A stretch of DNA of 20,675 bases, from assembly GCA_033762295.1 (NCBI GenBank), contig JANRLW010000094.1, positions 1 to 20,675 of the forward strand. The letters are read 5' to 3'. Position numbers and translations under genes: made by a program. Under the pieces are notes generated by a model. The model did not search any database. It saw only the letters and a program-made list of their open reading frames with translations, and was not told the DNA's origin. How positions within the stretch are numbered: the first letter of the stretch is position 1; the number at the start of each line of letters is the position of its first letter. Source of the stretch: Capsulimonadales bacterium. Its GTDB lineage: Bacteria; Armatimonadota; Armatimonadia; Armatimonadales; Armatimonadaceae. Below are positions 1,459-19,801 of this stretch, one piece after another.

Positions 1459-4236
1459 TTACCGGGGCGCGTCGCCGCTCTGGCTCAGCAGTTTGGCGAC
1501 CAGAGCCGTCCATCCGGTCTGGTGGCTCGCGCCCAGACCCGCGCCGTTGTCCCCGTGGAAATACTCGTAGAAAAGGATATGGTCCCGCCAGTGCGGGTCG
1601 TTCCGGAACTCCGGAATTCCGCCGTAGATGGGACGTTTGCCCTCCGCATCCCGCAGGAACAGGCTCGATAGTCGGTGCGACAGGTGACCGGCGATATGCC
1701 ACAGGTCGTACCAGCGATCGGACCCGGTCGGAAACTCCGCGAAGAACTCGCTCCCGTAGACATAATCAAACTTCTGCAACGCCTCGATCAGAAGGTAATT
1801 CAACGGGAACCAGATCGGACCGCGCCAGTTGGAATTCCCCCCGAACAGAGCCGTGGTCGATTCCGCCGGCGCGTATTCCACCCGGTAACGCATCCCGTTC
1901 AGGTCCAGGACATACGGATGGTCCCGGTGATGGCGGGACAGGGAGCGGATACCGTACGGCGAAAGAAACTCATTTTCGTCGAACACGTAGCGGAGGATCC
2001 GTCGCAAACGCTCGCCGCTGACCAGGGAGAAAAGCGCCCGGTTTCGCTGCCCGCGCCGCCCCATGTGCGCGACATCCCTGGCCAGATGGGGTTTCTCCCG
2101 GAGAAACCACTCGAGCCGCCGGACGAAGTCGGGGACCGCCGCCAGAACGTCGGCGTCGAACGCTTCCACGGCGAACAGAGGAATCAAGCCGACCATCGTC
2201 CGCAACCGCAACAGCATACAACGATCGGAATGTTCGTCGTCGTCCGGCAAGTGCAGAATGTCGTAATAAAAGCCGTCGTGTTCGTCCCAGAGGGAGATTC
2301 CGTTGTCGCCGATATTGTTCAGCGCATGCGCGATGTAGACAAAATGCTCGGCGAACTTGGTCGCGACGTCAGCATAGGTCGGATCGACCCGCGCCAGTTC
2401 CAGGGCGATCGCCAGCATGTTCAGACTGAACATCGCCATCCAGGCGGTACCGTCACACTGCTCCAGAAAACCGCCGGTCGGCAGGGGAGCGGAGCGGTCG
2501 AAGACGCCGATGTTGTCCAGCCCGAGAAACCCGCCCTCGAAAATGTTGTTTCCCTGAGCGTCCTTCCGATTGACCCACCAGGTGAAGTTCAACAGGAGTT
2601 TGTGGAAGATACGTTCGAGAAAATCGGTGTCGCCGGGTTCGTTGCGCGAATTCCCCCGCATCCGCCGCTCGATCCGATAGATCCGCAGAGCGGCCCAGGC
2701 ATGAACCGGCGGATTGACATCCGAAAAGTTCCACTCGTAGGCGGGCAACTGGCCGTTGGGATGCATATACCACTCGCGGCAGAGCAGTAGCATCTGGTGC
2801 TTGGCGAAGTCCGGATCGATTAACGCGAACGGGATCATGTGGAACGCCAGGTCCCAGGCGGCGAACCACGGGTACTCCCACTTGTCCGGCATGCTCAGAA
2901 TGTCCTGCATATGGGCGGTGTGCCACTCCCGGTTACGCCCCGTCCGACGTTGGGGAGGCGGAGCGGGCTGCGCCGGATCGCCCGTCAGCCACCGGTCGAC
3001 ATCGAAATGGTAGAACTGCTTGGACCAGATCAGCCCGGCGAAGGCTTGCCGTTGCACCTGGCGGGCGTCCTCGGAGAGTTCCGCCTCCGGATCGGTCGGG
3101 GAGAACTGGGAGTAGAAATCGTCCGCCTCCCGGATGCGTCGGGCGAACAGATCGTCGAACGCCGTCGGCGCGAATGGGTCGTCCTCCGTACCGAAGTGAC
3201 CGGGCGGCTCGCGCCGCAGCCGCAGTCGAAGGGTCGCGGACCCACCCGACGGAATCCGGAGAGAATACCAGGCGGTCGATTTGGTGCCCCGATGGTCCGG
3301 ATTGACCGCCGAAAGCTCCCCCCGGATGACCCGATCATGAAACGCGTCCTTCGGCCAGCGGGTCACACTCGGTACGCCGAAAAGCCGTTCGTTATTGGTT
3401 TCGTTGTCGCAGAAAAGAAGCGTCGGGACCGTCGGCTCTCGCTGAGCGATCAGGTGAAACGTTCCGAGATGCGGATGATCCGCCCGGATCACATTCTCGC
3501 GAACGGCGACGATTTCCGGCGGCGTCGGGTCCGGGGTATCCCATCGCCAATCGTTGCGAAACCAGAACGTCGGCAACAGATGCAACGGAGCCTCGTCCGG
3601 TCCGCGATTGTGGGCCGAAATGCGAATCGCGATATCGTCCGGCGTTTCTCGTGCGTACTCGACGAACACATCAAAGTAGCGGCTCTGGCGGAAGATGCCG
3701 GTGTCCAGCAGTTCGTACTCCCATTCGTAACGGTTCCGCAGGCGGTTGACCGTCCGCAGGTCCCCGTAGGGAAACGCTTCCTGCGGATATTTGTAAAGGA
3801 ATTTCAAATAGGAGTGTGAGGGGGTCGCATCCAGGTAGAAGTAGTACTCCTTGACGTCCTCGCCGTGGTTGCCCTGCGGGCCGGTCAGTCCGAAGAGACG
3901 TTCTTTCAGGATCGGGTCGCGTTCGTTCCAGAGGGCAAGAGCGAAGCAGAGCCGTTGTCGGATGTCGGAGATGCCCCCGAGACCGTCCTCGTTCCAGCGA
4001 TAGGCGCGGCTACGCGCATGGTCGTGCGGAAAATAGTCCCATGCGCTTCCATCCGGGGAGTAATCCTCGCGAACCGTTCCCCAGGCCCGTTCGGCGAGAT
4101 ACGGACCCCAGTGTCGCCAGGTGTCGGGCGTCCGGTGGGAGTCCTCGATGCGCTGCTGTTCCGCGCAGAGGTTCGGAGTGGTCCGAACGGTTCGTTCTCC
4201 GGGAGCGGGAGGAACGCCTGAAGGTTGAGTGGTCAT
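1459..4236 (-). CDS. Glycoside hydrolase family 63-like (MGH1-like) alpha-glucosidase / glycosylglycerate hydrolase
   Basis: 925 aa with family motifs [69 protein letters not shown] and [22 protein letters not shown]. Confidence 0.9.
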
Positions 4237-4326
4237 AAATCCGCCTTTCCAGGTCGCAAAAATATTCCGAACAGCAAAGAACCTTCCGGCAAAGAAGGTG
4301 AAGACGGAGGCTCGTTCGAACCTCTA

Positions 4327-5376
4327 ATGATGACGATGAAAATCGAGACGCTTCGTATTCTTTACGCCTGTACGCTGGCCGTTGTCGCGCTGATTCCGAC
4401 CTTTGTGACGCTGTCCGGTTGCGGCGGCGGCAGCAGCAGCTCTCCGCGACCCGGCGGCGGGGCGACCCCGACCCCGACTCCGGCTCCGACCGTCACCCCG
4501 ACCGTGCCGCCCGTTCCGACCGCGACCCCGGTTCCCACGCCGACGCCGTCCGGTTCCTCCACGCCGGTGCCGACCCCGGTTCCGACCGCGACCCCGGTGC
4601 CGACGCCGACGCCGACCATCCCGCCGTTACCGACGAACGTGCCGACCTTGCCGCCCCCGTCCGCGACGCCCACCCCGACCGCGACTCCGACGGCGACCGC
4701 GACCCCCACTCCGACCCCGACCCCCTCGCCCCTCCTGGGCGATGTTCTGAAACAACTCAACCAGGACGCCCGCCGCATCAACACCGTGGCGCTGTCGCCG
4801 ACCGACGCCTGGGTCGTCATTTTCGACGATATCGGGTTCAAAACACAGTCCGTTCCGCAGACTCTGACCGACGAACTGGCCCGGATCGCCACCCTCGGCA
4901 CGAAGATCAAGGCGGTCGCTCTCGGAACCAACGATTCCTGGCTGGTGATTTACGGGAAGAACCTGTTTACGGCGCAGGCTATCCCCACCGCCCTCTTCGA
5001 CCGACTGACGGAACTGAACGCCGCCGGTATCGAGATCCGGACGGCTGCTCTTTCGCCGGAAGGGAACTGGGTCGTCCTCTACGATCAGGCAAGTTTCTCC
5101 GCGAAGAACGTCCCGGAGGCGCTGTTTTCCCGAATGCGGGGCGAGGCGGCGGCAGGCGGGTCCCTTCTGCTGGTCGCGCTTGGGCCGAACAATAGCTGGG
5201 CGCTCACGACGGGGAACTTCGGGTTCCAAACCGCCGGGGTGCCTCAGGGAATGTTCGATGCGCTGACCGCGATCGGCGAGAGTCGGCTCACCGTCACCGG
5301 ACTGGCTCTGGGCAAGGTCGGCAGCTACGCCGTGACGTACGGTACGAACGGCTGGGGCGCGGTCACCACCCGGTAG
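4327..5376 (+). CDS. Lipoprotein with Pro/Thr-rich stalk and C-terminal five-repeat domain
   Basis: Start at ATG 4327 (or 4330/4336). Signal peptide ends in lipobox LSG|C (Cys codon 4420-4422), followed by a GGGSSSS linker, a PT-rich stalk and 5 x 43-aa repeats. Confidence 0.8.
   Translation: MMTMKIETLRILYACTLAVVALIPTFVTLSGCGGGSSSSPRPGGGATPTPTPAPTVTPTVPPVPTATPVPTPTPSGSSTPVPTPVPTATPVPTPTPTIPPLPTNVPTLPPPSATPTPTATPTATATPTPTPTPSPLLGDVLKQLNQDARRINTVALSPTDAWVVIFDDIGFKTQSVPQTLTDELARIATLGTKIKAVALGTNDSWLVIYGKNLFTAQAIPTALFDRLTELNAAGIEIRTAALSPEGNWVVLYDQASFSAKNVPEALFSRMRGEAAAGGSLLLVALGPNNSWALTTGNFGFQTAGVPQGMFDALTAIGESRLTVTGLALGKVGSYAVTYGTNGWGAVTTR
4465..4728 (+). repeat. Low-complexity coding repeat (TPTPTP / VPTATPVPTPTP linker)
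   Basis: Translation is almost entirely P, T, V, A and S. The unit VPTATPVPTPTP occurs twice. Confidence 0.9.
4729..5373 (+). repeat. Five tandem 43-aa protein repeats
   Basis: Manual alignment gives gap-free 43-aa units: xxLxDxLxxxxxxGxxIxxVAL[SG]xxxxWxVxYxxxxFxxxx[VI]P. Confidence 0.85.
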
Positions 5377-10760: not shown

Positions 10761-13241
10761 TCACCGGGCGCGGCTGAGCAGGGTTGCCGCCGTTTCCAGT
10801 ACCAGTTGACGGGTCGCTCCCGCCCCCGATCCGAGCAGTACGGCGACCGCCACCTCCCGCCCCGGCGAATAGGCGACCTGAAATTCGACCGTCTCGTTCT
10901 TCCCCGCTTCCAGCGCCTCCGAGAGAGCGGCCAGGGTGAAAGGGTCCGGAGCGGAGGATGCGGTGCCGGTGCGCCAGTGGCTTTCCTCCCGGTAGAAGGT
11001 AAGAATCGGGGCGTTCAAACCGAGGGCGAGTGCCGCCACCACCTCCTCGGCCTGCACCTCCTCGGTATGGGTGGCCATGTTGAGCAGCCGTTCGAGGAGA
11101 CGAGCGGTACGTTCGCTGCGTTCGCCCTCCTGCGCCAGACGAGCATTGCGAAAGGCCACCGCCGCCTGAGTGGCGAACGTCAGCAGCAGACGAACCTCCT
11201 CGGCCTGCCAGTGCCGGTGATCCCGCGTGTAGACTTCCAGTACCCCGATCACCTCCGATCCGCCCCGCAACGGAACTCCGAGGTAGGACATGATACCGCC
11301 ACGGACCGGGCGGTCGTAACCGGCCGAGAACCGCGGGTCGTCCGGCAGGTTTTCCACGGTCAGTGGGCGGGCCTGCTGTACGACCCATCCGGTGGGGGAA
11401 GCGGCGACCACCGGAACCGGGCCGCCTCCGCTCTCCACACGAAAACCGACCGCCGCCGCGACCTCCACCAGCGCGCGACCCTCCGGGCCGCGCCGAACGG
11501 CGTGGAGAACGCAGCGATCCGCCTCCATCACATCCTGGGTCAGACTGGCGATCAGTTCGGGAACGTTTTGCGGGGAGCGCGTCGCGGAGAGCGCCCGGGC
11601 GACCCGATGGAAGAACTTTCGCACATCGCTCGATTTGCGCCGGACGGTCGTATAGACCCGCGCATTCTCGATCGCGACCGCCGCCTGGTTGGCAATCGTG
11701 TAAAGCAACTCCATCTCCGCCACCGTAAACAGACGACGGCGTGAGGACAGGGCGGTCAGCACCCCGATGGTGGAGGTGCCCAGTTGCAGCGGCATCGCGA
11801 CCAGGGAGACGGCGCCTTCGGTATGGAACGGTGCGGAGGCATTGCGCTGGTCCGCCGCGATATCCCGGACCGCCGTCGGTGTCTCGAACTCCATGACCCA
11901 ACCAATGATTCCCTGCCCGATCCGCGGACGGAGACGTTCGGACGCGCCTTCGGGAAGGCCCCGTTGAAAAACCAGTTCCAGAACGTCGCCGTGCCGTTCC
12001 CGCAGAAAGAGAGCGAATTTGTCGACCGAGACCAGATGGAGAACGGCATCCGCAACGCGTTCCAGAATATCGGGGAGGCGCAGAGTGGAGGTGACCGCCT
12101 GGGAAAGCTCATACAGGGCGGCCGCTTCCTCGGCGCGGCGGGTCGCATCCTCGTACAGACTCGCGTTCTCCAGAGCGACCGCCGCCTGCGCCGCGACGGC
12201 GGTCAGCAGATTCGTCTCGGCGTTGGAAAATTCGTCGGTGTCGGACAGCGCCAGCACGAGGCCATGCGCGGTATCTCCGGCCCGGATCGGAGCGGCCAGC
12301 GCGGTCCGCGCCGATCGCTCCGGAAAGATCGGCGCGGTTTGAAGCAACCGACCCGGGAAGAACGGAAGGGACGCCATCTCCTCGTCGGAATCGGTGAACC
12401 GGATCAGGGAAGGCCCCCGGTCCGTGAGCAGCAGACGACCGACGCCGCTATCGGCTGCCAGCGTGATTTCCCGCTCCTCTTCCGTCAGCCCCGATTCCTC
12501 GGCAATATAGAGATGCGTCCGCTCGTCGTTGGTGAGAAAGGCGACGACGGCGGTCGATTCGATATGCTTGGAAGCCTGCTCGACGACGGCCTGCAGGACC
12601 TCCTGAGCGGTCAACTGCCCGGATACCCGCCGAACCGCCTCGTTCAACATCGTCAGTTCCCGACTCTGCCGCTGCTCGTTCTGCCGAAGGCGCGTGCTGC
12701 CGATAACGATGGCGGCGATGTTGCTGAGCGTCGACAGGGTCAGGAAATCCGTGCCATCGAAGGGCAGGTTACCGGCCTTATTCAGGGCGGTCAGGGAACC
12801 CACCGGCACGCCGTCGTCGTAGATCGGAACGACCAGGGCGGATTCCACCCGGGGCGGGTTACCGCCGGTCAACAGCGGGCGGTAGGCCAGAAAGGGTTCG
12901 CCCGTTCGCGCGGTGTTTCCGGCGACCGTATCCGTCAACCGGACCTGGGAGCCGAGCATCTCCTCCGCCTGCTCACCGGCGACCGCGACAAAGGTGACGG
13001 TGTCCGCGCCGTCATCGAGCAGGGCAATGGCCGACGACCCGCTGCCGGTCATCAGACAGACCTTCTGTGTCACCAGATTGAGAACGAACTCCTGCGTCTC
13101 GCCGTGAGCGATCACCCCCAGGATTTCATGGAGAACGGAAAGCACGGTCGCCGGCGACGTGGTGACCGACGGGACGGCAGGAGGTGAACTTCCCATGTCG
13201 GGAAGCGGAGCGGGGTCCGTGCTGTTGGCCTCGTCGGTCAT
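10761..13241 (-). CDS. Multi-GAF domain protein (four GAF domains plus a degenerate C-terminal domain), no recognisable output domain
   Basis: Four GAF signatures (SALVVPI..GVPVGSL; TALAAPI...HGLV; SLVAMPL...IGVL; SYLGVPL...IGVL), each followed by a helix such as QAAVA[IL]ENAxLY. Start taken at ATG 13241. Confidence 0.88.
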   Translation of the reverse strand: MTDEANSTDPAPLPDMGSSPPAVPSVTTSPATVLSVLHEILGVIAHGETQEFVLNLVTQKVCLMTGSGSSAIALLDDGADTVTFVAVAGEQAEEMLGSQVRLTDTVAGNTARTGEPFLAYRPLLTGGNPPRVESALVVPIYDDGVPVGSLTALNKAGNLPFDGTDFLTLSTLSNIAAIVIGSTRLRQNEQRQSRELTMLNEAVRRVSGQLTAQEVLQAVVEQASKHIESTAVVAFLTNDERTHLYIAEESGLTEEEREITLAADSGVGRLLLTDRGPSLIRFTDSDEEMASLPFFPGRLLQTAPIFPERSARTALAAPIRAGDTAHGLVLALSDTDEFSNAETNLLTAVAAQAAVALENASLYEDATRRAEEAAALYELSQAVTSTLRLPDILERVADAVLHLVSVDKFALFLRERHGDVLELVFQRGLPEGASERLRPRIGQGIIGWVMEFETPTAVRDIAADQRNASAPFHTEGAVSLVAMPLQLGTSTIGVLTALSSRRRLFTVAEMELLYTIANQAAVAIENARVYTTVRRKSSDVRKFFHRVARALSATRSPQNVPELIASLTQDVMEADRCVLHAVRRGPEGRALVEVAAAVGFRVESGGGPVPVVAASPTGWVVQQARPLTVENLPDDPRFSAGYDRPVRGGIMSYLGVPLRGGSEVIGVLEVYTRDHRHWQAEEVRLLLTFATQAAVAFRNARLAQEGERSERTARLLERLLNMATHTEEVQAEEVVAALALGLNAPILTFYREESHWRTGTASSAPDPFTLAALSEALEAGKNETVEFQVAYSPGREVAVAVLLGSGAGATRQLVLETAATLLSRAR

Positions 13242-13289
13242 GTTCGCGGATCGAGAAAACAAGAGAACAGGCGTTTCTGAAACCGTGCC

Positions 13290-13357: not shown

Positions 13358-14644
13358 ATGCGCACCTTCGATACCCGTTCGACCCCGATCGCCGACCTGG
13401 GACGCCTTTTTGATGAACGCCTGGAGGCCGCCGCCGCCGACGCGGAAGAGGCCGTTCGCGAAATCCTTGCCGACGTGCGAAACCGGGGCGATGCCGCCGT
13501 TCTGGACTACACCCGCCGTTTCGATTATCCGCACGCGGAAAACCTTCGGGTTCCCGAGGAACGGATCGAGGAGGCGGCCGAGCGGATCGCACGAACGCCC
13601 CTGCAAAACGCTCTGGAGCAGGCGGCGCAGCGGATTCGCGTCTTCCACGAGAAGCATCGGCGTACCTCCTGGATCGATGCGGAGCGTCCCGGCGAAACCC
13701 TCGGGCAGATCGTCCGACCGCTGGCGCAGGTCGGCATCTACGTACCGGGCGGGACGGCGGACTACCCGTCGACCGTCCTGATGACCTGCATTCCGGCGGC
13801 CGTCGCCGGAGTCGGGCGGATCGCCGTCGCGACCCCGCCGAACCGCGAGACCGGGCTTCCGCCGATCGCGACGCTCGCCGCCCTGCGTATCGCCGGTGTC
13901 ACCGAGGTTTACGCCATGGGCGGAGCGCAGGCCATCGCCGCATTCGCCTTCGGAACCCGGAGCGTGGCGCGGGTCGATAAGGTCTTCGGACCGGGAAACG
14001 TCTACGTCAATCTGGCAAAGAAGATGGTGTACGGCATGGTCGGAGTCGACCTGCTCGCCGGGCCGAGCGAGGTGGCGGTCCTGGCGGACGAGGCGGGCGA
14101 CCCGGTCGCCGCCGCCGCCGATATCCTGACCCAGTGTGAACATGATACCAACAGCTCCGCGCTGGTCGTGTCCCCCTCGGAGGCGTTCCTGCAGGCGGTG
14201 CGGGAGGAGATCGCACGGCAGGCAACCACCCTGCCGCGCGGCGAGATCGCACGGCAGGCGCTGGCAGCGCACGGTTTTTGCGTCCTGACCCGTGACCTGA
14301 GCGAAGCGGCGGCGGTCGTCTCCCGATACGCGCCGGAACACCTGCACCTCGACACCCGGGAACCGTACGGTCTGCTCGGGGCGATCACGAACGCCGGGGC
14401 GATTCTGATCGGGCGGCATACCTCCGCGCCGCTCGGGGACTATGTCGCCGGTCCGAGCCACACCCTGCCGACCGCCGGCTGCGCCCGGTTCGCCTCCCCG
14501 CTCAATATTGACGACTTCACCAAGAAGACCAGCCTGCTCGCGTTTTCGGCGGACGCCGCCTCCGCCCTGAGCGAGGCCGCCGTCGTCTTCGCCGAGTTTG
14601 AGGGACTGGAAGGACATGCGCGCGCCGCCCGTCGGCATCGCTGA
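13358..14644 (+). CDS. hisD: Histidinol dehydrogenase
   Basis: GIYVPGG, GGAQAIAA, GPGNVYV..AK, AGPSEV, QCEHD, APEHL, GDYVAGPSHTLPT, EGLEGHA. Start at ATG 13358. Confidence 0.96.
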   Translation: MRTFDTRSTPIADLGRLFDERLEAAAADAEEAVREILADVRNRGDAAVLDYTRRFDYPHAENLRVPEERIEEAAERIARTPLQNALEQAAQRIRVFHEKHRRTSWIDAERPGETLGQIVRPLAQVGIYVPGGTADYPSTVLMTCIPAAVAGVGRIAVATPPNRETGLPPIATLAALRIAGVTEVYAMGGAQAIAAFAFGTRSVARVDKVFGPGNVYVNLAKKMVYGMVGVDLLAGPSEVAVLADEAGDPVAAAADILTQCEHDTNSSALVVSPSEAFLQAVREEIARQATTLPRGEIARQALAAHGFCVLTRDLSEAAAVVSRYAPEHLHLDTREPYGLLGAITNAGAILIGRHTSAPLGDYVAGPSHTLPTAGCARFASPLNIDDFTKKTSLLAFSADAASALSEAAVVFAEFEGLEGHARAARRHR

Positions 14645-14671
14645 TTCCGGCGGCAATATCCCCGATCGCGC

Positions 14672-16030
14672 CTAGAGCAGCCCCTCCTCACGCATCAACT
14701 GCGGCAGAAAGGCGGTCGAAAGTTCGTTGTCGCGGTAACGTGGGTCGGCAAGGATCCGGAGAAGGAAGGGGATGTTCGTCGGAATGCCCCGAATGATCGT
14801 CTCCTCCAGACAGCGTTGCATACGGGCGATCGCTTCGGTCCGGTTCGCGCCCCAGACGATAATCTTCGCCAGGTTGGAGTCGTAATAGGGGGGGACGACG
14901 TAGTCCGTGTAGATCTGAGTATCGACACGGACACCCAGACCGCCCGGCAGTCGGACGGTCGTCAACGGACCGGCGGCAGGAGCGAAGTTTCGCTGTGGGT
15001 CCTGCGCGGTTACCCGGCACTCGATCGAGTGCCCATGCCACTCGATCTCCTCCTGCCGGTAGGGTAATGGTTCGCCGGCGGCGATGCGGATCTGCCACTG
15101 CACGAGATCGATGCCGGTGACCGCTTCGGTCACCGGATGTTCGACCTGGATCCGTGTGTTCATTTCCATGAAATAGAACTCACCCTCGGGCGTGAAGATG
15201 AATTCGACCGTTCCCGCGTTGGTGTAACCGACGGCCTGCGCCGCCCGGACGGCGGCTTCGCCCATCCGCCGCCGCAGGTCCGGGGTCAGACTCGCCGAGG
15301 GGGCCTCCTCAACCACCTTCTGGTGGCGCACCGTCTGGACCGAGCACTCTCGTTCTCCCAGATGGAGATAGTTCCCGTGCCGGTCCGCGAGTACCTGGAC
15401 CTCGATGTGCCGCATCTGCCGGATGTACTTCTCCATGTACACGTCCGGATTGCCGAACGCCGAGGACGCTTCCGACTGGGCGATTTTGAGAACGCGGAGC
15501 AGTTCGTCCTCATCCTCGACCACCCGAATGCCGCGTCCGCCTCCGCCGGCCGTCGCCTTGACGACGACCGGGTAGCCGATGCCGGCCGCAACCCGCGCGG
15601 CGTCGGTTTCATCGCCGAGAACGCCTTCGGAACCGGGGACCGTCGGAACACCCGCCGCTCTGGCCGTTCGGCGCGCCGTCGCCTTATCACCCATCGCCTC
15701 GATCGCCGCGACGGGCGGACCGATGAAGGTGAGTCCGGCGGCGGCGCAGACCTCCGCGAAGGAGGCGACCTCGGACAGAAACCCGTAGCCGGGGTGGATC
15801 GCTTCCGCGCCGGTGATCAGGGCGGCGGAGATGATGTTCGGGACGTTCAGGTAGGAGTCCTTGCCGGCCGGAGGACCGACACAGACCGCCTCATCGGCGA
15901 GTTGCACCGGAAGGGAATCGATGTCCGCCTGGGAGTGTATCGCCACCGTCGCGATCCCCATCTCCCGGCAGGCGCGAATCACCCGGACGGCGATCTCGCC
16001 GCGATTGGCTATCAGTATCTTCTTGAACAT
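14672..16030 (-). CDS. accC: Biotin carboxylase (acetyl-CoA carboxylase biotin carboxylase subunit)
   Basis: MFKKILIANRGEIAVR, IHPGYGFLSE, MGDK, KATAGGGGRG, RHIEVQ, FMEMNTRIQVEHPVTE, PPYYDS. True start is ATG 16030. Confidence 0.93.
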   Translation of the reverse strand: MFKKILIANRGEIAVRVIRACREMGIATVAIHSQADIDSLPVQLADEAVCVGPPAGKDSYLNVPNIISAALITGAEAIHPGYGFLSEVASFAEVCAAAGLTFIGPPVAAIEAMGDKATARRTARAAGVPTVPGSEGVLGDETDAARVAAGIGYPVVVKATAGGGGRGIRVVEDEDELLRVLKIAQSEASSAFGNPDVYMEKYIRQMRHIEVQVLADRHGNYLHLGERECSVQTVRHQKVVEEAPSASLTPDLRRRMGEAAVRAAQAVGYTNAGTVEFIFTPEGEFYFMEMNTRIQVEHPVTEAVTGIDLVQWQIRIAAGEPLPYRQEEIEWHGHSIECRVTAQDPQRNFAPAAGPLTTVRLPGGLGVRVDTQIYTDYVVPPYYDSNLAKIIVWGANRTEAIARMQRCLEETIIRGIPTNIPFLLRILADPRYRDNELSTAFLPQLMREEGLL

Positions 16031-16068
16031 GTCTGTTGGAAAGGTTTGAGCGGTACGGGAAAGCGGAC

Positions 16069-16491
16069 CTACGGCCCGATCTGCGGAAGGTTCGCGCCTC
16101 CGCCCAGATTGGGAATCTCCGCGGTGCCGCCGGAGTTGCCGACGCGTCCGGTGACCGGATCGTAGGCCAGAGGCCGTTTCGTCACCGGATCGAGCAGCAT
16201 TTCGTCGGTGACCCCGTACGATTTCAGTTCGAGCAGCGTCTCCGGATTGCGGTCGTCGTGATCCTGTCGGTACATCTGCAACGCCAGGTTGATCTGCCCG
16301 ATATATTCGGTGCCGGCGACCTGTTTGGCGCGTTCGCGCGGTGCAACGATCCTCTTTTTGGTGACCGGGTCCGTTCCGCCCAGCAGACGGGGCAACAGCA
16401 GGGAGGCGAGAATGGCAATGATCACGGCGACCACAAGCAGTTCGATCAGACCGAAGGCACGTGTGCGCGCCGACGCGGAAGGACGATGCAT
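16069..16491 (-). CDS. Prepilin-type N-terminal cleavage/methylation domain protein (GspG-like pseudopilin)
   Basis: Basic leader followed by A|FGLIELLVVAVIIAILASLLLP (class III signal, Glu5). ALQMY...P.TL.EL and DP....L.Y resemble GspG-like pilins. SD GGAGG lies in the end of the upstream gene. Confidence 0.8.
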   Translation of the reverse strand: MHRPSASARTRAFGLIELLVVAVIIAILASLLLPRLLGGTDPVTKKRIVAPRERAKQVAGTEYIGQINLALQMYRQDHDDRNPETLLELKSYGVTDEMLLDPVTKRPLAYDPVTGRVGNSGGTAEIPNLGGGANLPQIGP

Positions 16492-16493
16492 GG

Positions 16494-16946
16494 TTATTCC
16501 TCCGGGACGATTTCAAACAACGGCTGGCCGTATTCCACCGGCTGCCCATCCATGACCAGAATCGCCTGAATTCGCCCGCCGACCGGGGCCGTGCAGTCGT
16601 TCAGAAGGCGCATGGTCTCGATCTGCCCGAGCACCTGCCCCTCCGTTACCGGATCGCCCACCTGAATCGGCGAACGTGTCAGGGCATGAAAGACACCGAC
16701 ATATCCGGCGCAAACCGTCTCCGTTTTCGGAAGGACCGAATGCGCCGAGGGGGGAACGGCGTTGATGCCGTCGAAGAGGGCGGTGGCGACCGATGTCCTC
16801 CGCGTGCGTTCCGTCGTACGGGCCCGCGGAGGCGGTTCCGGACGGCGCAGCCGCAGACGAACGCCGTTCGCCCGAACCTCCAGTTCCGTCAGGGAGGTCG
16901 ATTCCCGCAGCACCGCCGTCAGTTCCTCAATCTGCGAATAGTCCAC
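16494..16946 (-). CDS. AccB/BCCP-like biotinyl-domain protein lacking the biotin-accepting lysine
   Basis: N-terminus MDYSQIEEL...LTELEV, then a linker, then VGVFH...IQVGDPVTEGQVLGQIETMRLLNDCTAPVGGRI...DGQPVEYGQPLFEI. This is the BCCP layout, but with MR in place of MK. Start taken at GTG 16946. Confidence 0.85.
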   Translation of the reverse strand: MDYSQIEELTAVLRESTSLTELEVRANGVRLRLRRPEPPPRARTTERTRRTSVATALFDGINAVPPSAHSVLPKTETVCAGYVGVFHALTRSPIQVGDPVTEGQVLGQIETMRLLNDCTAPVGGRIQAILVMDGQPVEYGQPLFEIVPEE

Positions 16947-16954
16947 GACTTCGA

Positions 16955-16963
16955 ATTGTATCA
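16955..16963 (-). promoter_or_regulatory. Extended -10 promoter (TGnTACAAT) for the accB-like/pilin/accC unit
   Basis: Minus strand TGATACAAT, ending 8 nt before GTG 16946. Confidence 0.55.
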
Positions 16964-17051
16964 CAGTTCCGACAGCCGGACGGTCGCAAAACGGGCAGCC
17001 GCACGTGGAGGGAACCGTCTACCCGCCCGGATGGTAAACGAAGGCGGCGAT

Positions 17052-17083
17052 TTGCCGGCGAGCCTCCGGGCATGGAATAATCT
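17052..17083 (+). promoter_or_regulatory. Putative promoter for the leaderless 17090 ORF
   Basis: TTGCCG (17052-17057), 18 nt spacer, AATAAT (17076-17081). TAATCT (17078-17083) is an alternative -10. ATG follows 6-8 nt later with no SD. Confidence 0.4.
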
Positions 17084-17089
17084 CCGTGT

Positions 17090-17587
17090 ATGAAACGCCG
17101 CGTCCTGCGATTCGCCCGGTTCATCAGCCTCCTGATCGCTCTGTTTTTCCTCGCGTTCCTGCCGTTCGCCTATCACTTCTATTCCACACTGGGCATCGAT
17201 ACGGACCGGACGGACGGACCCGCGTCCATCTATTATCGGTACTATCGCGTTCGGTGGCGCGGAGACGGGACGGTGGAGATCGGGAGCGGAGCGCATCACT
17301 ACGCGGCGAACGTCAAAAAGCCGGAGCCTTTCGACCTGGCCGGGCGCTTCTTCGATCCGCCGCGCCCCGGGACGGTGCGAAACCGGTGGAACGCTCTGGG
17401 GTTCCGGCGCAAACTCTCCCGGGCGGAGGATGAGTTCAGCGTCCGGGACGCCTCCCTGCTCCGCCCGTATCAGAACTGGGTCGGTATGCCGGCCTGGTTA
17501 CCGGTGATATTCTTCGGCGGTCTCGCCCTGATCCTTCGGGCGGCCGAACGCAAAACGCCGGAATCGTCCGCTAAATCTTCGCCTTGA
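17090..17587 (+). CDS. Hypothetical membrane protein (N- and C-terminal TM helices)
   Basis: MKRR + hydrophobic helix, a beta-rich aromatic middle, and C-terminal MPAWLPVIFFGGLALIL. The 3' end overlaps the convergent gene by 17 nt. Confidence 0.65.
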   Translation: MKRRVLRFARFISLLIALFFLAFLPFAYHFYSTLGIDTDRTDGPASIYYRYYRVRWRGDGTVEIGSGAHHYAANVKKPEPFDLAGRFFDPPRPGTVRNRWNALGFRRKLSRAEDEFSVRDASLLRPYQNWVGMPAWLPVIFFGGLALILRAAERKTPESSAKSSP

Positions 17588-18815
17588 AGCACGCCCATTC
17601 CAGCGTCTGCAGCATTTTGGAGACGATCATCAGGGAGACGGCGACGACGATACCCCAGCTGACGATGTCATTGGGCTTGCCGAAGGTCGGTGTGTTCTGT
17701 CCCCCGGCTTTGAACGAGATGCGCGAAACGAGAGCATCGGCCATCGTAAACCCGCCGGAGATCAGATCCTTCATCCACCCGGACAGGAAGAAGCAGAGCG
17801 CAATACCGCCAATGATGACGATCGGCAGGAGGATACGATACTTTTCCGCCTGATGCTCGTTATAAATGATGCAGTTCCGGCAGCGTTCGACCTTTTCGGC
17901 CATCGTCAATTCGATCCGTCGCCGGGAGAACTCCTGGTCGATGCCGACGATGCCCCGTCCGCCGACCGTCATCTCCGGTCCCCGTCCGGCGGTCGAACCG
18001 CCGATACCGCTGAAGGTCATCGGGGTCGGCGCCGCGCCGGGCGTGGGGGAGTTGGCGTAGTTGCGCTGGGGATCGGGAGCCATACCGAGGACGATTCCCT
18101 GCACCTTCTGCGCAGCCTGGGTGACGATGTCCTCTTCGCAATAGCACCCCCGCCGTTCCTTCCAGCAGGCCTTCTTCGCCTGGAAGATCGGGCAGTGCGG
18201 TCGAATCGAATCCCGGCAGTACGGTCCTTCCCAGCATCTTCCGAAGAGGGAGGTCCGCATCGGCTTGCGTTCCGCCGAGGCGTCGTTGCCGTACGTAAAC
18301 GACTCCGGGTTCATCTGTTTGTCGCGGAAAGCGGAGGTGAACCGCCGGATGATGTCCCAGATGACCAGGGCCAGGCCGACGACGCCGGGCACGTAGGCCG
18401 CGTTGCGGAACCCCATAAGAGCGGCGACGAGGCCGCGGCCCGACTGGCTCTGATTCCCGAACGTCGCGAAAACGAACGGGATGCCGAAAGCCAGGCCCAC
18501 CGCCCCGGCGAGCATGATATATCCGATCGTCTCCTCGCCCCAGAGGACCAGAGCGACGCAGAGCGACCCGATCATCAGACCCCAGAGCAAAATCTGTGAA
18601 GCGGTCCCCAGAACGCCCAGAACGCGGGTTTGATCCGCCTGGGGGAGCGTGTCCACGCCGGCCAGATTCCCGGAGAACATTCCGAACAGAATATATATCG
18701 CGGCAAGACCGGCCGCGGCGAACGACAGGTTCATCACCAGCGCGACCACATTATAAACGGTCGGACCCAGCACCGACCAGAGGGTGCGCCCTTCCGACTG
18801 CTCTTCGGCACTCAT
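17571..18815 (-). CDS. Multi-pass membrane protein with Cys-rich (two-CW-like) soluble domain
   Basis: Strong SD (GAGGAGG) before ATG 18815. About 4 N-terminal and 2 C-terminal TM segments. CWEGPYC-x7-CP-x7-CW-x5-CYC ... CRNCIIY. Confidence 0.8.
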   Translation of the reverse strand: MSAEEQSEGRTLWSVLGPTVYNVVALVMNLSFAAAGLAAIYILFGMFSGNLAGVDTLPQADQTRVLGVLGTASQILLWGLMIGSLCVALVLWGEETIGYIMLAGAVGLAFGIPFVFATFGNQSQSGRGLVAALMGFRNAAYVPGVVGLALVIWDIIRRFTSAFRDKQMNPESFTYGNDASAERKPMRTSLFGRCWEGPYCRDSIRPHCPIFQAKKACWKERRGCYCEEDIVTQAAQKVQGIVLGMAPDPQRNYANSPTPGAAPTPMTFSGIGGSTAGRGPEMTVGGRGIVGIDQEFSRRRIELTMAEKVERCRNCIIYNEHQAEKYRILLPIVIIGGIALCFFLSGWMKDLISGGFTMADALVSRISFKAGGQNTPTFGKPNDIVSWGIVVAVSLMIVSKMLQTLEWACFKAKI

Positions 18816-19068
18816 ACCGACCTCCTCAATAACAGGCGACGCGGACTCTCCGAACGACGGAGCGATACGGTCGCGAACATGACCGGGCGGAAACGTTTCG
18901 ATGGAAGCGGAGCTGAAGATAGAGGTTCCCGAGTCGTGCGTGCCACCGTGCGATGGCACGAACCGGAAGCCATACCGCTATCATAGACGGTTACGGTCCG
19001 GAAATTGTTACTTCAGGAAAGCGGAAGTGGGCAGATTTTCCGAAAATAATTCGGAGACAGGCAGTGAA

Positions 19069-19102
19069 CGTCCGTTCCCGAAAACTCTGACGGGAACGGA
19101 CG
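19069..19102 (-). terminator. Stem-loop downstream of efp (probable terminator or mRNA-stabilising hairpin)
   Basis: Perfect 12-bp stem CGTCCGTTCCCG/CGGGAACGGACG with a 10-nt loop, 16 nt after the efp stop. The U-tail is weak. Confidence 0.6.
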
Positions 19103-19118
19103 ACGGTCGGGAGTCGCG

Positions 19119-19676
19119 CTATTTTACGCGTTCCAGATAGGAGTCCGTCCGCGTGTCGATCCGAATCTTTTCGCCGATATTGATGAACAGCGGAACGTTG
19201 ACCACCGCGCCGGTCTCCACCTTCGCCGGTTTCGACCCGCCGGTCGCCGTATCGCCACGGACACCCGGATCGGTTTCCACGACCTGCAGTTCCATGAAAT
19301 CCGGCACGCTGACGCCGATGACCTCCCCCTTGTATCGTATGACCGAAATGTCCATATTTTCCTTCAAATATTTCCGCTGGTCACCGAAGAGGCTTGCCTG
19401 AATCCCGGTCTGCTCGAACGATTCCATGTCCATCAGGAAGGCTTCGTCGTCCTGCGTGTACAGATACTGCATGGTCGTACGCTCCAGGACGGCCTGTTCC
19501 ACCTTCTCGCCCGCGCGGAAGGTCCGCTCGATCGAGTTGCCGGTACGCAGGTTCTTGATGCGGGTACGGACGAAGGCAGCCCCTTTACCGGGCTTGACGT
19601 GCATAAACTCAACGATAGTCCAGATGTCGTTGTCCAGGAGAATGGACAGACCGTTGCGAAAGTCGCTTGTATCCAT
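19119..19676 (-). CDS. efp: Translation elongation factor P
   Basis: HVKPGKGAAFVRT, YLY, FLMDMESFEQ, PGVRGDTATGGSKPAKVETG..V.VPLFI..GEKIRIDTR..SYLER. Confidence 0.97.
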   Translation of the reverse strand: MDTSDFRNGLSILLDNDIWTIVEFMHVKPGKGAAFVRTRIKNLRTGNSIERTFRAGEKVEQAVLERTTMQYLYTQDDEAFLMDMESFEQTGIQASLFGDQRKYLKENMDISVIRYKGEVIGVSVPDFMELQVVETDPGVRGDTATGGSKPAKVETGAVVNVPLFINIGEKIRIDTRTDSYLERVK

Positions 19677-19801
19677 AATGATTTCTTGTTCCAGTGGTGG
19701 CGGAAAGGGCGTGGGGCGTCCGTTCCGGGGCCGGGAGCGGGAGATAACGCCCCGGCCCGGGCCACCGCATTATAGCATGCGACAAAAGATGGATACAAGC
19801 G
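19664..19801. repeat. Perfect 13-bp inverted repeat flanking the efp leader and -10 box
   Basis: CGCTTGTATCCAT (19664-19676) and ATGGATACAAGCG (19789-19801), with 112 bp between the arms. Confidence 0.8.
19769..19798 (-). promoter_or_regulatory. Sigma70-type promoter for efp
   Basis: Minus strand TTGTAT (19798-19793), 18 nt spacer, TATAAT (19774-19769) preceded by TGn (extended -10). Confidence 0.7.

Follow-up and report, generated by a model that had tools for sequence, protein, structure and literature searches.

An accC-linked BCCP paralogue without the biotin-acceptor lysine in Armatimonadota, a candidate BADC-like partner of acetyl-CoA carboxylase

The window, a stretch of 20,675 nucleotides of DNA from a Capsulimonadales bacterium analysed here as a whole, carries near accC a gene for a biotin carboxyl carrier protein (BCCP)-type protein, here called accB', in which an arginine stands at the position of the biotin-acceptor lysine. 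We propose, with a rough probability of 0.58, that accB' is a BCCP paralogue that cannot be biotinylated and that selection maintains in the role of a non-catalytic partner of acetyl-CoA carboxylase (ACC), in convergence with the BADC proteins of plants. A BADC-like regulatory or scaffold subunit is the best-supported reading of the sequence data; its binding to AccC or to BCCP, an effect on ACC activity and the direction of any such effect are what we infer for it. The gene and the parts of its predicted product are as follows.

16494..16964, minus strand: accB', BCCP-type paralogue without the biotinyl Lys (ORF, Pfam, TIGR00531, AF2)
16845..16940, minus strand: BCCP N-domain, helix plus beta-hairpin, residues 9-40 (AF2 and alignment with the E. 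coli BCCP N-terminus)
16668..16688, minus strand: shortened thumb loop FHALTRSP, 4-5 residues short of canonical BCCP (profile alignment)
16503..16724, minus strand: biotinyl-type beta-barrel, residues 81-154, with GQPVEYGQPLF (AF2, Foldseek, conservation)
16608..16610, minus strand: CGC codon for Arg119 (156-aa numbering) at the biotin-acceptor position (sequence and profile alignment to 4hr7_B)

The open reading frame yields 156 aa from the GTG at 16964 and 150 aa from the GTG at 16946, of which the latter is the likely true start, because homologues begin M-D/N-Y/H-x-Q-I-E; it ends with the TAA at 16496-16494. On the minus strand the hairpin reads cag atc gag acc atg cgc ctt ctg aac gac, or QIETMRLLND, with ATG at 16613-16611 and CGC at 16610-16608. 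This agrees with the original prediction, as does its remark on the codon, since CGC is unlike AAA and AAG at all three positions. Alignment of the family profile with 4hr7_B places Arg119 opposite the EAMK lysine, Lys122 of E. coli BCCP, so that the biotin-acceptor Lys of the (A/S)MK(M/L) hairpin is absent and ETMR stands in its place. Biotinylation of some other lysine had been raised as a way in which this interpretation could fail; the hairpin holds no other Lys, and since the only lysine of the protein, K80, lies in the variable, non-conserved linker, there is no alternative acceptor at the hairpin. Lys occupies the acceptor site in 29 of 30 AccBs of other phyla and in 39/39 second paralogues (see below), and because it is near-universal in these proteins, the Arg of accB' is not a chance variation. 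In a 33-sequence alignment (A1), M118, R119, L120 and D123 are each at least 90% conserved, position 119 as R, and the GQPVEYGQPLF motif is invariant or nearly so. Most Arg forms of the window's family read MRL[ML][NS][DE]C, with a Cys five residues past the Arg (16608-16625 of the window, A1); canonical BCCPs have Ile or Val at that position, and the Cys is missing in one genus of the family.

Apart from the acceptor residue, accB' has the full-length layout of a BCCP, comprising an N-terminal domain, a Pro/Ala-rich linker and a C-terminal barrel. Pfam Biotin_lipoyl (PF00364) matches residues 90-152 (E 6.6e-13), and the family profile matches E. coli BCCP (4hr7_B) end to end, over 21-175, with an E value of 2.2e-24. 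The NCBIfam BCCP model TIGR00531 aligns with residues 2-154 of 156 at 67.2 bits, below its cut-off of 115.2, under which the canonical paralogue of the same genome also falls (82.9 bits). The AF2 model has a mean pLDDT of 85.6, reaching 96-98 over the barrel (81-154), and gives a disordered linker and an N-terminal part made up of a helix (9-21) and two strands (27-32 and 35-40); R38 and R41 of this N-domain are invariant in A1. The best Foldseek matches are 1bdo, the E. coli biotinyl domain (TMt 0.82), P. horikoshii BCCP, Arabidopsis BCCP1 and 4hr7_G.

The suggestion that the rest of the BCCP layout is intact therefore holds for the N-terminal domain, the linker and the barrel, but not for the thumb loop, which is 4-5 residues shorter than in canonical BCCPs and shows a 4-residue gap against the E. 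coli TPSPDAKAF. The GxF motif and the acceptor site are 31 residues apart in 39/39 second paralogues and in 27 of the 28 AccBs scored from other phyla; the spacing falls to 26 in most accC-linked copies and to 23-28, for the most part, in those of the window's family. Work by Cronan in 2001 reportedly found the thumb to be required for ACC function in E. coli. The barrel of accB' is thumb-less and a close structural match to the thumb-less biotinyl domains of P. horikoshii BCCP, transcarboxylase 1.3S and PC/PCC; those domains, in contrast, carry the biotinyl Lys and act as carriers. The N-domain has the alpha/beta/beta form of E. coli BCCP in ACC filaments, for which passages of a preprint propose that the N-terminal alpha/beta/beta motif oligomerises and holds BCCP in the assembly (PMC11160672).

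The genome of the window (132 contigs, 94.5% complete) encodes a conventional carrier elsewhere. Six Biotin_lipoyl matches were found: accB', a second accB, three strong lipoyl E2 acyltransferases and one weak match that sits inside a 591-aa frame. The second accB, on another contig (G000:C43), encodes 178 aa with LIEAMKVF, thus the EAMK motif whose presence in the genome the original prediction had proposed to look for, and a full-length thumb; it adjoins a homoserine-dehydrogenase-like gene, not accC. Aside from the weak match, it is the only other BCCP-type protein found in the genome. A single tblastn match for accC was obtained, accD and accA form one adjacent pair, and one biotin ligase was found, which has a birA_ligase domain (263 aa), passes TIGR00121 with 120.9 bits and aligns to residues 81-308 of bifunctional BirA, the repressor domain being absent. 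From this inventory, the second accB is the only biotinylatable protein found in the genome. That the AccC of the window might work with a carrier encoded elsewhere, an alternative entertained in the original prediction, is thereby borne out at the genomic level.

Source names place the window in Armatimonadota, and the state of the acceptor site is shared with close relatives; all genomes compared are draft or MAG assemblies. In the window's family the accC-linked copy is non-Lys in 25/25 genomes (R 19 with the window included, G 5, H 1), and hence beside accC in each of the 24 others (R 18, H 1, G 5), Gly being found in all 5 genomes of one genus. The best 41 metagenome proteins among 5.8 billion carry R in 38, T in 2 and G in 1 case. 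The alignment with relatives suggested in the original prediction therefore shows a conserved non-Lys residue in all 24 and no Lys among family members or metagenome proteins; its view that a sequencing error was improbable can be strengthened, as conservation among relatives excludes such an error as the cause of the Arg. Genera with only about 45-55% identity share the Arg, and because it is kept across genera that have only about half their residues in common, the Arg itself appears to be constrained. The hairpin is not under constraint everywhere, as seen in genus g6, which sits on a long branch and has the degenerate form DTVGIT. In the sister family the accC-linked copy has K in 15/16 genomes and R in 1/16.

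Sampling was extended to other families of the phylum with two sets of 20 and 60 genomes; the set of 60 includes one locus that could not be read and one that contained the second paralogue. The 78 readable accC-linked copies of these sets comprise 38 K and 40 non-K forms. Across 119 Armatimonadota genomes the copy is K in 53 and non-K in 66 (R 40, G 14, H 3, S 3, T 2, and A, Q, D and N 1 each), a ratio that may be tilted because the genomes were sampled as ranked by their similarity to an Arg-form query; 20 of the 29 sampled families include non-Lys forms. When 1.84 billion proteins were searched with the family profile, the best 150 cluster representatives divided into 82 with K and 68 without, a ratio that may likewise be tilted by a profile built from Arg forms. 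On a gene tree of the 119 genomes built without the acceptor column, which is one quick and weakly resolved tree, at least 15 changes between K and non-K were counted. The 53 Lys-bearing copies have the canonical SMK motif and may still be working carriers in those lineages. Since 53/119 copies keep SMK, the biotin-free role could be derived rather than ancestral. Within one genus, L207 (G121) and L208 (G221) have near-identical hairpins with K and S, respectively (KIGTIQAVKLMTDLTS vs KIGTIQAVSLLTDLTS), a difference that reads as a very recent loss of the Lys.

The second paralogue accompanies the accC-linked copy nearly throughout. Searches recovered it from 22 of 24 family genomes, the other two being 78% and 85% complete, from 16/16 genomes of the sister family and, at E <= 1e-8, from 247 of 251 genomes of the phylum. 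It has Lys in all 64 genomes read, namely 39 of the two families including the window's and 25 others; the latter are non-Lys genomes of other families, each with (E/M)AMK. These 25 come from 40 non-Lys genomes of other families; one of the remaining 15 (80% complete) gave no second-paralogue match. Coexistence with a Lys-bearing BCCP, a trait of the BADC type, is thus present in the window's genome, in 22/24 family genomes and in the 25/25 non-Lys genomes checked in other families.

The two paralogues also separate in phylogeny. In a 125-row tree from a quick IQ-TREE search, weakly resolved as trees of such short proteins are, a branch with an SH-aLRT support of 96 sets apart the accC-linked copies, 56 Armatimonadota rows and one long Chloroflexota row, and the second paralogue (39 rows, support 100) groups with 29 AccBs of other phyla. 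Given the short loop of most accC-linked copies, the thumb-less state is old and phylum-wide, and the Lys was lost later and many times. The Chloroflexota row (L108, a Candidatus Limnocylindria record; 755-1951 and 3414-4796) is a BCCP-like gene situated some 1.4 kb upstream of accC; it reads AIQSLGHMAEV, with Gly at the acceptor site, and joins the accC-linked clade of Armatimonadota by a long branch. Lys-less BCCP paralogues may thus exist outside Armatimonadota.

Selection on accB' was estimated as dN/dS (Nei-Gojobori) within genera for pairs with dS <= 2, values that are rough because most dS values are saturated. The accC-linked copies have a median of 0.19 in the window's family (0.10-0.32, 12 pairs, non-Lys) and 0.25 in the sister family, where they bear Lys; the second accB has 0.13 and 0.19 in the same families, and accC 0.04 in the window's family. 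The least saturated non-Lys pairs give 0.154 (dS 0.50), 0.111 (dS 0.95) and 0.195 (dS 0.87), and the values for non-Lys accB' are no higher than those for the Lys-bearing copies of the sister family. Given the family-wide conservation of the non-Lys state and these ratios, accB' is evidently under purifying selection and not a decaying gene; the degradation that had been considered as a competing explanation is matched neither by the dN/dS values nor by frameshifts, none of which were seen in relatives.

The genes around accB' are arranged as follows.

19119-19676, minus strand: efp (ORF and domain search)
17571-18959, minus strand: Cys-rich membrane protein, no Pfam or NCBIfam family (ORF)
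17090-17587, plus strand: 165-aa ORF with an N-terminal hydrophobic stretch and no family assignment, between the membrane gene and accB'
16069..16491, minus strand: pilin-like ORF, 140 aa, between accB' and accC (Pfam N_methyl, NCBIfam GspG-like N-terminus)
14672..16030, minus strand: accC, biotin carboxylase, start ATG 16030 (Pfam Biotin_carb_N, CPSase_L_D2, Biotin_carb_C)

The accC gene lies 0.46 kb downstream of accB' on the same strand, with one small ORF in between. The proposal that accB' heads the accC unit is upheld with the qualification that this pilin-like ORF (16069-16491) intervenes; it has a prepilin-type N-terminal methylation motif, begins 2 nt past the accB' stop and is similarly placed in most relatives across the phylum. 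The start of the membrane protein is probably at 18815, because its ESM Atlas entry begins at residue 49; the ESM Atlas clusters of this protein are Armatimonadota-only. The order efp, Cys-rich membrane protein, accB', pilin-like gene and accC is seen again in the two families of the order and in numerous further families of the phylum; in several families the accC locus is without the membrane gene or the pilin-like gene. The membrane protein and the pseudopilin-like protein are thus interleaved in the usual efp-accB-accC cluster. The 165-aa plus-strand ORF overlaps the end of the membrane gene by 17 nt, and was found at this locus only in the window's genome among the loci compared. A search of 15 other family genomes gave homologues of it in 3, at other places; it looks like a genome-specific insertion into a conserved cluster. 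As it separates accB' from the upstream genes, accB', the pilin-like gene and accC form a unit of their own here. A promoter and terminator scan of 14500-19800 gave counts no higher than in shuffles, and a look-up of sequencing runs for 14672-17000 listed none. Elsewhere in the window, an 833-aa ORF (10761-13262, minus strand) lies upstream of hisD on the opposite strand.

On the basis of these findings, we propose the following hypothetical scenario, in which (i) the second accB, with EAMK and an intact thumb, would be the real carrier and serve the single AccC, the AccD/AccA pair and the BirA-type ligase; (ii) accB' would enter the biotin carboxylase subcomplex; (iii) it would dock on AccC, co-oligomerise with the true BCCP via its N-domain, or both; and (iv) once in the subcomplex, it would act as a scaffold for assembly or, as a competitor of the carrier, set the level of ACC activity, as proposed for plant BADC. 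Passages of PMC11926652 and PMC12706156 describe BADC proteins as BCCP homologues without the biotinylation motif, non-catalytic and found beside true BCCPs, for which an association with BC and BCCP has been reported together with inhibition or scaffolding of ACCase. These articles and PMC7712654 contain two proposals, that BADC competes with BCCP for BC and that it serves as glue or cap in the assembly. Like plant BADC, accB' is a BCCP homologue without the biotinylation site that coexists with a true BCCP and is under apparent purifying selection. Unlike plant BADC, it is bacterial, thumb-less and placed in an operon-like unit with accC. It would also differ in its independent origin, with Lys lost repeatedly inside Armatimonadota: since Lys-bearing members persist in the accB' clade, the bacterial Lys-less forms should be independent of plant BADC, as judged from a tree built without plant sequences.

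The same comparison separates accB' from its bacterial homologues. With canonical AccB/BCCP (TIGR00531, E. coli AccB, 1BDO, 4HR7) it shares the three-part architecture, the fold and the accC/efp neighbourhood, but it lacks the acceptor Lys, has a thumb 4-5 residues shorter, scores below the cut-off and falls in a separate clade. The second accB, which is present in nearly all genomes of the phylum, is a paralogue of the same architecture; in contrast to accB', it keeps the Lys and the full thumb, groups with the AccBs of other phyla and adjoins homoserine dehydrogenase.

Several other roles of accB' were weighed against that of a non-catalytic ACC partner. It could act mainly as a regulator of expression that represses or tunes its own accB'-accC unit, as the N-terminal part of E. 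coli AccB does, the carrier role having moved to the second accB. The N-domain is indeed retained and conserved, residues 1-68 of E. coli AccB alone are stated in a part of PMC11160672 to repress accBC expression, and accB' heads its own unit with accC, cut off from the upstream genes by the opposite-strand gene. However, the best-conserved parts of the protein are the barrel and the hairpin, which such a role does not need, and no DNA- or RNA-binding feature was identified in accB', so that we regard this explanation as unlikely; it is also not exclusive of the reading of accB' as a non-catalytic ACC subunit. Somewhat less probable still is a function together with the Cys-rich membrane and pilin-like neighbours, whether as an adaptor that docks ACC to the membrane or in some process in which ACC has no part. 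The recurrence of the five-gene order in both families of the order and in many others speaks for such a link, as do the 2 nt that separate the accB' stop from the pilin-like gene and the docking of plant ACC to the envelope by small membrane proteins, CTI, described in a section of PMC7712654. Yet pseudopilin-type domains are normally found outside the cytoplasm and BCCP is cytoplasmic, which makes the arrangement topologically awkward; moreover, the membrane or the pilin-like gene is missing there in several families, and in the window's genome the inserted opposite-strand gene parts the membrane gene from accB'. A more elaborate version, in which efp, the membrane protein, accB', the pilin-like protein and accC form a membrane-docked ACC control module around a biotin-independent BCCP-like subunit, with any remaining Lys an unneeded relic, strikes us as improbable; if true, it would mean bacterial convergence on both BADC (the dead carrier) and CTI (the membrane dock).

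Whether accB' has a function at all was considered as well. A redundant duplicate drifting to loss, whose Lys was lost neutrally because the second accB suffices, would be consistent with the frequency of Lys loss and its many forms (R, G, H, S, T, A, Q, D, N), and with the faster evolution of accB' than of the canonical paralogue. We consider this very improbable, given that each of the 119 genomes in which a syntenic copy was identified yielded a reading of it (one made without a screen for internal stops), that dN/dS stays at 0.10-0.32 and does not exceed that of Lys-bearing copies, that the Arg is kept across genera at about 45-55% identity and that GQPVEYGQPLF is invariant or nearly so. 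Least probable in our estimate is that accB' acts as a decoy for the biotin ligase, by which biotin use or the control of a biotin operon would be tuned: the hairpin motif around the Arg is conserved, and apo-AccB relieves the repression of biotin synthesis in E. coli according to a passage of PMC11160672, but the only ligase found (263 aa) has no repressor domain to control, and the motif is lost in genus g6.

An earlier role of accB' in a second carboxylase, the loss of which would have released the Lys from constraint, was rejected, as no link with the Lys state was found. A search for PF01039 in 41 genomes returned nothing but accD and accA from the majority in each of the two families, irrespective of the Lys state, and an extra full-length carboxyltransferase in 8 non-Lys genomes and 1 Lys genome. 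Full-length carboxyltransferases of the propionyl/methylcrotonyl-CoA carboxylase beta type (E about 1e-153) are encoded by G003, G006, G009, G014, G016, G017, G020, G023 and G034; within the family this type occurs in some genera and is absent from the window's genome.

In summary, our analysis points to accB' as a non-catalytic, BADC-like ACC partner in Armatimonadota. Non-biotinylated BCCP look-alikes that shape ACC have so far been described only for plant plastids, a passage of PMC11926652 calling BADC 'unique to the plant htACCase', and we found no description of a bacterial non-biotinylated BCCP paralogue in the literature searched, which included work on BADC and on cyanobacteria and left subscription journals mostly outside its coverage. 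For annotation, the sources apply the name 'acetyl-CoA carboxylase biotin carboxyl carrier protein' to these genes, yet the products of roughly one in two cannot carry biotin, and the gene of the real carrier lies elsewhere. A phylum with an accC-linked, thumb-less BCCP paralogue in which the Lys was lost many times would show that a BADC-like device has evolved independently, and accB' would offer a simple bacterial system in which to address the question of inhibition versus scaffolding in ACC.
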